From: Eledone cirrhosa
Lineage: Eukaryota
Assembly (NCBI GenBank): GCA_964016885.1
Contig: OZ024742.1
Span: 277,636,001 to 277,700,000, forward strand
DNA length: 64,000 bases
Direction of reading: 5' to 3'
Numbering within the stretch: position 1 is the stretch's first letter; each line of letters starts with the position of its first letter. Shown in pieces: positions 2,900 through 45,005 of this stretch. The position numbers and the translations under genes were made by a program. The notes below the pieces were generated by a model. It was given only the letters and a program-made list of their open reading frames with translations. It was not told the origin of the DNA and ran no database searches.

Positions 2900-3200
2900 C
2901 GAGAGTAAAACAACGAACCGCAGAGGACACGTATCGCTCCTCTCCGACAGATAACCTTCTCCACCCCCGGAAAACCCCCCAGTTGATGGATGTGAATCCG
3001 AAATATAGGGAAAATTAAATCTCTCCCAAGGTAACTCTATTTCGTGTTATTATTTTTATTTTTTACACTCTTTCCTACATCCTTCTACACACTATACATC
3101 TCATTCTACATTCACTTACATCTCTTTCTTTTCACCACCGGATCTTGTTACCCGGAGAATTACACAGCTGCATTGTTGAGGCTTCCAAAACGCCCAAAAC
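2900..3200 (+). mobile_element. Diverged solo pseudo-LTR related to the PLE at 36895-40888
   Basis: Shares ccagttgatggatgtgaatccgaaatata, ctctcccaaggtaactct and caccaccggatcttgttac with 40520-40840. Confidence 0.8.
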
Positions 3201-4251: not shown

Positions 4252-4735
<484 letters not shown>

Positions 4736-9936: not shown

Positions 9937-10215
9937 ACTCCTTTTCTGCTCTTTACTTCCACTACGGTTTTTTTACCTGCTGAATCCACGTTCTGTACTC
10001 TTGAATTCTCTTTCTCCCTTATCTCCCCTTATATTTAAACCTTTTCCTATGTCATTTTCCCCCCTCTCCCCCCCCCTATTTTTTTGGCTTACCCTTCACA
10101 TACCAAACATTTTTTTATTTTTACATATTAATTTTTTATACTATGGTTTTGTGTGTTTTTATATAATAGCCTCAGAAAAGGCTTGAGCTCTGCCGTAGGG
10201 TCAGACTTTTTCCTA

Positions 10216-10258
<43 letters not shown>

Positions 10259-15987: not shown

Positions 15988-16023
<36 letters not shown>

Positions 16024-16027
<4 letters not shown>

Positions 16028-16211
16028 CGAAGGAAATGTGGTAAGGAACCAGGTGGACCATAACGCACCAAAGTACTCAATACTTAGGGTAGTAGAGTGG
16101 GTAATAGGAACAAGTAAGACCCCGACGGCTGAGCTCAAGCCGTTTCGACGGCTAATTCTGAATTAGCCGTCGAAACGGCTTGAGCTCAGCCGTCGGGGTC
16201 TTACTTGTTCC

Positions 16212-16243
<32 letters not shown>

Positions 16244-16437
16244 ACAAAGGAATTGTGGTAAGGAACCAGATGAACCATAACGCACCAGAGTACTCAATAC
16301 TTAGGGTAGTAGAGTGGGAAATAGGAAAAAGTATGACCCCGACGGCAGAGCTCAAGCCGTTTCGACGGCTATTTCTGGACTGAAATAGCCGTCGAAACGA
16401 CTTGAGCTCTGCCGTCGGGGGTCATACTTTTTCCTAT
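16024..16437. mobile_element. Two diverged fold-back modules, each containing the 3' half of a hammerhead
   Basis: Hairpin centres near 16159 and 16378; stem-GAAA-cggct tgagctc agccg-TC-ggggtc. Confidence 0.75.
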
Positions 16438-16448
16438 ATATATATATG

Positions 16449-16526
<78 letters not shown>

Positions 16527-17063
16527 ATATATATATACATATATATAATATAATATATATATGTGTGTGTGACTTTGTGTGTGTGTTAGTTAGTGCGTAT
16601 GTATCTGTGTAGCATAGAAGTTCGTATGGTTTTAAGTTCGATTCCCGGTAGTACGTTCTTGAGAAAAAACCCTTGATTTCATGGTGTTCTAGTCCACACA
16701 GAGCTGTACCTGTAATTAAAAGGGTCAGTTTTGTCACACATTATATTCCACTGAATCTTCCTGAGAGCCACGTTATGGAACGTACAGTTACTAAACATTT
16801 ATTTCACGAGCAAGCTGTTCCGGTGATTAAAAAAGAAAGAAAAAAGAACACGCATCGCTGAAATCGACTGAGGTTTAAAATTCACTTGTGTGTATTAATA
16901 CGTCGATGTGTTGGTATATATATATATATATTAACCTGTGTGTGTGTGCTCGTGCGTGTGTGTGTGTATGTCTATGCCTGTTAATATGTATGCGTGCATG
17001 ATTGTGTATGTGTGTGTAGGCCTATATGGATTTGTAACCGAATAAAAGGGTTAACTTGCTCAC

Positions 17064-31170: not shown

Positions 31171-31499
31171 CGTTAAGGGTGAAAGCAGCGATTCTTTGCT
31201 TAAACTTTAATCTGTTATTTTAATATATATATATATATATATAATTATATATTCGTGTACAGATATTTTTGCATACACAAAAACAAAATATAAACAAACG
31301 TATTTATTTCACAAAAGCACAAAATGTAGACACCATCCCGAAGCCGAGGTATTCCATACTTCTCTGTACTGATTCGCCCTTATAATATCTATTTGTATGT
31401 CTGGCTGTCTGCATTACGACATTGACTTCGCTATAATTGTAGTGCACCTGAGCACTGTACACGATATTTCATTATTATCTGTGTGTGTATGTATATATA

Positions 31500-31549
<50 letters not shown>

Positions 31550-31661
31550 TGTAACGTTTTTCAAAATATTTACTTCTGCGTTCACAGATTGATTTTTTTA
31601 GTTTCAGAAGATCCCGTTAAGGGTGAAAGCAGCGATTCTTCGCCTAAACTTTAATCTGTTA

Positions 31662-31707
<46 letters not shown>

Positions 31708-44789: not shown

Positions 44790-45005
44790 AAGGTGTGGTA
44801 AGATATCAGGTGGACCATAACGCACCAGGTATCTTACCACACCTAGCAACGAAATGGTATGCATGATATATTTTCAACTTGTCTCCTTATTTTTATGAAG
44901 AATTCAACCCCGATGAAGAAACTTGAATTCTTCTAATATTGGTTATTCCAATGTCTTGGAATTGCCGATATTGTATCTTGAGTTTCAGAAACCATGGTTG
45001 GGTAT
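44790..45005 (+). mobile_element. Older module: short inverted piece related to the 16024 family plus degenerate HHR (44907-45003)
   Basis: gtggtaag..caggtggaccataacgcacca shared with 16036; accc cgatga a gaaactt...gagtttc a GAAA ccatgg TT gggt. Confidence 0.55.

Follow-up and report, generated by a model that had tools for sequence, protein, structure and literature searches.

The Hydra clade of Penelope-like elements (PLEs) is characterized by a C-terminal GIY-YIG domain, DKT, RW[K/R], CxCX5C and CxxC/CxH motifs, and no CCHH (Craig et al., 2021, PMC8557442). Inverted, 5′-truncated pLTRs of EN+ PLEs have been described as head-to-head arms with a tail on one arm and a palindromic junction (PMC8557442; PMC3846280; PMC2377424). 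The making of these inverted, one-tailed insertions was called undefined in the 2021 survey (PMC8557442), and Arkhipova et al. (2013, PMC3846280) took junction palindromes as self-priming with an antisense template. The pLTR hammerheads of PLEs are of type I, with U3-A8, a short helix I and a palindromic loop 3, and come in pairs lying on opposite strands (Cervera and de la Pena, 2014, PMC4209133). TATA and Inr elements were proposed in the pLTR of rotifer Pen2a, and a start site was mapped in the pLTR of Drosophila Penelope (PMC8557442; PMC3846280; PMC2377424). The start of a plant retrozyme was mapped upstream of the ribozyme cut, and cleavage removes the 5′ part (PMC12029980). The purified protein of Poseidon (Anolis), which belongs to another clade, cleaves and extends both strands and has two internal initiation sites, and ribozyme cleavage was not needed for insertion in vitro (Frangieh et al., 2024, PMC11167929).

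The family analysed here shares with Hydra-clade PLEs the single ORF with GIY-YIG, the (TA)n target, the pLTR hammerhead and the partial tandems (PMC8557442); its likeness to Hydra-1_Obim was judged by eye rather than from a tree. The monomer is ~3.54 kb and the tail 80 nt, against generally under 3 kb for Hydra-clade monomers and 30–40 bp for PLE tails in the survey (PMC8557442). Unlike the Hydra-clade PLEs described in the published passages considered, it has a U3-A8 core and a long stem II, and consists mostly of stubs with one 5′ boundary. The paired motifs on opposite strands and the type I, U3-A8 core with short helix I and palindromic loop 3 are as in other PLE pLTR hammerheads, but stem II is ~58 nt with a predicted promoter and stem III is 5–6 bp, unlike the minimal PLE forms. 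Neither the element class nor the head-to-head one-tailed layout nor the U3-A8 core is new. The Drosophila Penelope start lies upstream of an intron that ends at helix I, hence upstream of the ribozyme; here it would lie inside stem II. No statement of a capped start or of twin priming was found in the titles and passages considered from the PLE literature, nor in the print covered was a predicted start inside a ribozyme, recorded by a cap-like G.

Layout of the locus

The window is a stretch of 64,000 nt from Eledone cirrhosa (OZ024742.1), whose genome is 3.0 Gb and TA-rich. It contains two near-perfect palindromes inside (TA)n, module 1 at 16027–16211 and module 2 at 16244–16434. Each module pairs a long minus-strand arm with a short inverted arm on the plus strand. 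Offsets are counted from the A of YAGTCC, the inferred RNA start (offset 0). The family has two fixed 3′ ends, site A at offset +57 and site B at +137, with native TAT after both. The features are as follows.

15989–16026, no strand: left (TA)n flank
16027–16160, minus strand: module 1 tailed arm, reaching from offset +4 to site B across the hammerhead 3′ half, site A and the 80-nt tail
16124–16146, minus strand: module 1 hammerhead 3′ half in the tailed arm (GAAA, stem III with near-palindromic loop, GUC)
16160–16211, plus strand: module 1 inverted arm, spanning offset +6 to site A, where TTCC gives way to the TA repeat
16172–16194, plus strand: module 1 hammerhead 3′ half in the inverted arm, predicted cut after 16194
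16212–16243, no strand: (TA)n target microsatellite separating modules 1 and 2, read from the sequence
16244–16381, minus strand: module 2 tailed arm, second subfamily, closest to intact copy L061
16382–16434, plus strand: module 2 inverted arm, from offset +6 to site A, joined bluntly to the tailed arm
16435–16560, no strand: right TA-rich flank
31171–31223, plus strand: stub of family D, a different hammerhead family (core CAGAAGA), cut short within the stem II loop

The minus-strand arm of module 1 was identical to the intact copy L055 at 134/134 positions, and (TA)n comes directly after its site B. Its two arms overlap by 1 nt at the junction, and the predicted cut in the tailed arm falls after 16124, the 5′ core being absent. 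The tailed arm of module 2 ends at offset 0 relative to L061 (the A of YAGTCC at 16381) without an extra G, and the arms of module 1 are trimmed to +4 and +6. The inverted arm of module 2 differs from its tailed arm by one substitution and one extra G. The modules are mutually 89% identical, with arm-matched differences, and match different subfamilies, and are therefore separate insertions, as the first-pass annotation had suggested from those differences. Tandem duplication of one module was ruled out because the modules are of different subfamilies, and a MITE-like unit amplified as a fixed palindrome because the apices vary from copy to copy.

The first-pass annotation had read the right arm of both modules as GAAA-CGGCT..AGCCG-TC, without CTGAnGA. 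Both readings were confirmed, with a point change in module 2 (CGACT..TGCCG). The modules do carry the 3′ half of a type I hammerhead; both stubs lack the 5′ half, and hence the complete core. That annotation read the motif on the right arm; the full, tailed arm is the left one, read on the minus strand. The quoted apex letters (aattc-t-gaatt; atttc-tggact-gaaat) are present, and both apices lie inside stem II. They had been placed in a presumptive stem II loop. The native stem II, however, possesses a separate 5′ strand, with ~40 nt between the outer strands, so the apex is the junction of two inverted arms and not a loop.

Further copies were seen elsewhere in the window. A diverged single stub of the same family lies at 10165–10216 (plus strand), starting near offset +7 and ending at site A. 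A fragment 91% like the tail is found inside a small hairpin at 44794–44828, perhaps from a sister family. A further TA-associated family, in which a hairpin comes after GAAA, occurs at 4280 (minus), 18784 (minus)/18884 (plus), 31961 (plus) and 34253 (minus), one pair of copies standing head to head.

Assignment of the element family

The window modules are assigned by sequence as stub insertions of a Hydra-clade PLE with ~30,000 copies. A core 35-mer gave 29,627 exact matches genome-wide (0 for the reversed control). A genome-wide pattern search found 29,898 site-B ends with TATATA directly after, a (TA)n preference to be set against the 328 tail-to-ORF junctions (variants matched) at which the tail continues into the ORF. 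Long copies run into this ORF and form tandem arrays with a period of ~3.54 kb. The frame of the tandem copy L099 is 786 aa (L099:3179–5536). By motif reading it contains YRDD of the reverse transcriptase and, at the C-terminus, GIY-YIG (VIYQ..AYIG). It also has SDKTG (DKG changed to DKT), RLRWR (R for K in RWK), a linker CNCPDRSIC that fits CxCX5C, and CNLC-SEE plus LLN..CKH, which give CxxC and CxH around E and N. CCHH is absent, and a single C was seen by eye inside the GIY-YIG core. A Pfam search of the L099 ORF gave no match, and the Hydra assignment is based on motif reading. The Nematis clade was rejected because CCHH is absent and DKT replaces DKG. A non-LTR retrozyme of tandem non-coding monomers of a few hundred nt was rejected because the arms derive from a 3.5-kb monomer with an ORF, of which they cover the pLTR and tail.

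Most copies are stubs of 60–200 nt with one common 5′ boundary. Head-to-head pairs of every size were found; in 20 stretches chosen for such pairs, the arms measured ~180–1,870 nt. Near L055:1909–3034 (minus-strand count), an ORF of a different Penelope-like clade (SDKG) lies beside a copy of the Hydra-clade family.

The hammerhead motif in intact relatives

The intact copies carry ACCCC-TTGAnAA-G ~58 nt before GAAA (4,257 matches genome-wide). TTGAnAA, with varying N, was present in 82 of the 94 sampled intact copies, and CTGAGAA (mismatched 3-8) in nine. Together with GAAA, UH and three helices, this constitutes a type I core (C3/U3-U-G-A-N-G8/A8-A). The expectation that intact relatives have an upstream core was borne out, but the core is TTGAnAA at this distance, not gaccc-CTGAnGA. 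CTGAnGA within 34 nt of the core gave only 55 matches, mostly junction accidents and sister families, and was rejected as the upstream core of this family. Canonical CTGAnGA with a short stem II and nearly the same stem III was found in sister families (L016:1498–1580, L022–L024).

A single-sequence fold recovered the three-way junction (z=-0.64), and 89.7% of cells in the hammerhead alignment were paired, against 21–42% in slid controls. The RNAalifold consensus favours a competing hairpin over the hammerhead, no covariation in the alignment rose above shuffles, and Rfam on the window plus one intact copy returned no hammerhead, only sub-threshold miRNA matches driven by microsatellite and palindrome. 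In L099:3160–3175 and in both modules, the stem II 3′ strand can pair with the stem III 5′ strand in a 6-bp hairpin with a CGAA loop; this hairpin, a rival to the hammerhead fold, is predicted when the RNA begins at offset 0.

A second pile of 5′ ends was seen at offsets 38–43, around the predicted cut. It held 7 of the 26 early-stopping arms that come from the ORF (expected 1.4, p=3e-4, for an interval picked after the data were seen) and 5 of 38 stubs (p=0.06); examples are L330, L333, L360 and L361. The pile hints that intact copies are sometimes cleaved.

The 5′ boundary of the arms

The 5′ boundary of the arms is sharp and lies at the A of YAGTCC inside stem II. Among 100 aligned site-B tailed arms, 49 ended at offsets -5 to +7, one at -60 to -6 and nine further upstream; the other 41 stopped earlier, 23 of them at +8 to +57 and 18 beyond. 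This sample was drawn from the loci of the first 100 site-B places (102 rows minus 2 duplicates) and includes a few further arms inside the same loci; the arm samples are first places on contigs C1–C2, not random draws. Three early-stopping tailed arms were internal deletions of arms that reach the boundary. Apices are thus far from random with respect to the hairpin, as proposed earlier: 49/100 tailed arms fall within -5 to +7, against 1 in the 55 nt upstream. Most ends lay at +1 to +6 rather than 0, and 10/100 tailed arms were scored at -1 to -4, so trimming or minor starts must be assumed.

An inverted partner was found by script for 64 of 91 short arms, and 51 of these 64 partners ended at site A. 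The script set misses a few (L150, L151, L196) and includes a few weak matches, and a clean set of 56 pairs was used for comparison. In the clean set, 47/56 partner arms ended at -5 to +7 and one upstream. Several arms stop at the boundary without an inverted partner (L130, L185, L206, L208, L214). Two stubs 257 bp apart (L309; C1:27009639 and 27009896) start 3–4 nt before the inferred start; both run past site B, and the first goes on into the beginning of the ORF.

Arms coming from the ORF behaved differently. For 90 such arms, from places among the first 100 of the 328 tail-to-ORF junctions, 11 stopped at -5 to +7, 53 read on and 26 stopped earlier, so that 53 of the 64 reaching the stem II region read through. 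The stop/pass ratio was 49/10 for stubs versus 11/50 for ORF-derived arms, one array being counted once (p=6e-13). Since ORF-derived arms mostly pass stem II, the fold is no obligate block; and since only 11/90 of them end at the inferred start, most long copies would come from read-through RNA.

The short palindromes might instead be collapsed longer inverted insertions or assembly artefacts, which we consider scarcely credible. Palindromes are unstable, and long inverted pairs with arms of ~180–1,870 nt do exist, but collapse would not yield a one-base boundary with an added G. Contigs from a public run, whose kind is not on record and which may be the assembly's own sample, also argue against it: their depth steps up at the same boundary, from 144,000 (3106–3131) to 3.5 million (3158–3183) in X1, and another run holds a 60-nt fold-back contig (X4 record 11).

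The base before the boundary

Natively, offset 0 is preceded by C or T, and a purine stood there in 5,497 arms genome-wide. In a hand count of the first 100 listed, this non-native purine was G in 85 and A in 15. At a control A, offset +5, 1,394 arms had a purine, with a 50:50 ratio of G to A by hand count (p=2e-7 against offset 0). After five point variants were dropped from the first 30 loci, the control gave 16 G to 9 A and the difference was weaker (p=0.024). In an unselected set of 17 rows the base before offset 0 was G in 11, C in 5 and A in 1. The G was not a continuation of the partner arm in 20 of 26 G rows (one row duplicated).

The boundary word was TTAGTC, TCAGTC or TCAGTA (TYAGTM, Inr-like) in 91 of 94 intact copies, and a TATA-like word, in the stem II 5′ strand at -29 to -31, was present in 89 of 94 by a pattern defined after the sequences had been seen. 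Both were judged against the TATA and Inr consensus words. The AT-rich UTR within the same 3.9 kb holds three further TATA+Inr pairs. Among L1 insertions, capped full-length ones are marked by an extra G (PMC11702581). The boundary is likely to be a Pol II start, with the extra G as the copied cap.

The same boundary could be read as a product of RNA processing, the YAG being a 3′ splice site and G-AG the end of an upstream exon or leader. The boundary words TTTTCATTTAG or TTTTCATTCAG are acceptor-like, and the Penelope intron ends at its hammerhead (PMC4209133). Nevertheless, no shared exon or leader was visible upstream of the extra G in 30 rows inspected by eye, and the pLTR has no GAG|GT donor upstream, the three GAGGT sites of L099:2467–6330 all lying in the ORF. 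Processing is highly improbable.

Family D and the possibility of a roadblock

Family D (27,990 genome-wide matches) offers a comparison with another hammerhead. The copy at 31171 does begin in the stem II loop, as the first-pass annotation had observed, but it is atypical for its family. Of 65 family D arms, 40 extended upstream and 21 ended within -5 to +7 of the A in the word TTAGTT, which lies at stem I's 5′ edge; two were scored in stem II or its loop, one of which (L432) is in fact an intact copy that an indel caused to be mis-scored, leaving 1 true case. Both arms that end exactly at the A of TTAGTT carry G. The family D stop follows the Inr-like word and not stem II. An intact family D hammerhead-like motif lies in the window at 31600–31668 (plus strand), with core CAGAAGA at 31605–31611 (A at position 4). 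A family D arm was also found head to head with a stub of the Hydra-clade family ending near the inferred start, a two-family junction (L412).

These data bear on whether twin-primed and end-joined cDNAs were merely halted on a longer RNA by a roadblock, either a protein or the stem II inner helix. Such a block would fit the stop, which falls within the 3′ strand of the inner helix as predicted, and the spread of ends over ~12 nt, and reverse transcriptases add untemplated bases at stalls. Yet most ORF-derived arms read through the same fold, the bias towards G is confined to offset 0, all subfamilies seen keep the Inr and TATA-like spacing, and family D stops at another structural position but at a similar Inr-like word. 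A roadblock is therefore unlikely, and a run-off at a start site is preferred.

Relationship between the two arms

The first-pass annotation had proposed that the cDNA stalls in stem II, folds back and self-primes the inverted arm. The apices lie inside stem II and the arms are subfamily-matched, with 1.3 differences within a pair versus 6.1 between pairs (26 pairs). Moreover, 31/56 clean pairs were near-symmetric, and self-priming is the published reading of such palindromes (PMC3846280). The junctions that a fold-back predicts were nevertheless rare: one in the outer helix of stem II and 32 in the inner helix genome-wide, against 11,823 palindromes with a gap of at most 30 nt between two stem II 3′ strands. 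In the predicted fold, a cDNA ending at the apex has its 3′ end unpaired.

The asymmetric pairs point in the same direction. In 8/56 clean pairs the tailed arm stopped before site A and the arms shared nothing, 7 of the 8 partners reaching the boundary; this non-overlap means that one arm was not copied from the other. In 15/56 pairs (18 minus three internal deletions) the partner contained more than 10 nt that the tailed arm lacked, although a one-sided later deletion could mimic some asymmetric pairs. The reading through of stem II by 53/64 ORF-derived arms, the use of site A as the end of long, non-stub arms and the extra G, which snap-back leaves unexplained, also count against it. Snap-back is very unlikely as the mechanism and, for the bulk of copies, largely refuted.

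Discussion

We consider it probable that the stubs arise from twin-primed cDNAs on one RNA, which would run off a predicted capped start in stem II and be end-joined. Transcription would start at the Inr inside stem II of the upstream pLTR. The element protein would nick both (TA)n strands and prime on the RNA at sites A and B, near its 5′ end. Both arms would derive from one RNA molecule and both cDNAs would run off the cap, their ends then being joined head to head by end-joining, with short trims, overlaps of 1–7 nt or small insertions. A site-B cDNA that reached the RNA end would give a palindrome, and one that fell short a simple inversion; priming at the downstream copy of a read-through RNA would give the long pairs.

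In print, self-priming has been suggested for the palindromes of EN+ PLEs; the present copies favour two primed cDNAs. As in Poseidon, two internal sites delimit the tail, although sites A and B here have TAT microhomology to the target (PMC11167929). In the parts of that study considered, inverted insertions are not explained and a capped start is not mapped. The resemblance to L1 lies in the priming of a second reverse transcript from the target's other end and in the extra G at full-length 5′ junctions (PMC11702581). The arms here differ from L1: they generally span one common stretch of 60 nt, have fixed starting sites and lack poly(A), and L1 inversions for the most part do not overlap.

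The ribozyme 5′ core would be missing from a transcript that begins at offset 0, which would leave the 5′ copy in that transcript unable to self-cleave in cis. We lean slightly towards a fuller proposal, in which the core promoter would be embedded in stem II, with the TATA-like word in the 5′ strand and the Initiator in the 3′ strand, so that the 5′ copy is disarmed and downstream copies stay whole. A dimeric enzyme would use a single RNA, at two fixed sites, to prime both target strands, and the palindromic stubs, many thousands in number, would be strong-stop-like cDNA pairs that record the cap.

PLEs are the closest relatives of telomerase, and the origin of their inverted insertions is at stake here. 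The Hydra-clade family supplies natural insertion products by the thousand, which show a boundary exact to the base, a cap-like G and asymmetric pairs by which the models can be told apart. If the proposal is true, the inverted, one-tailed shape of Penelope-like insertions would be explained without self-priming, and the element could keep a self-cleaving RNA without losing its own cap.
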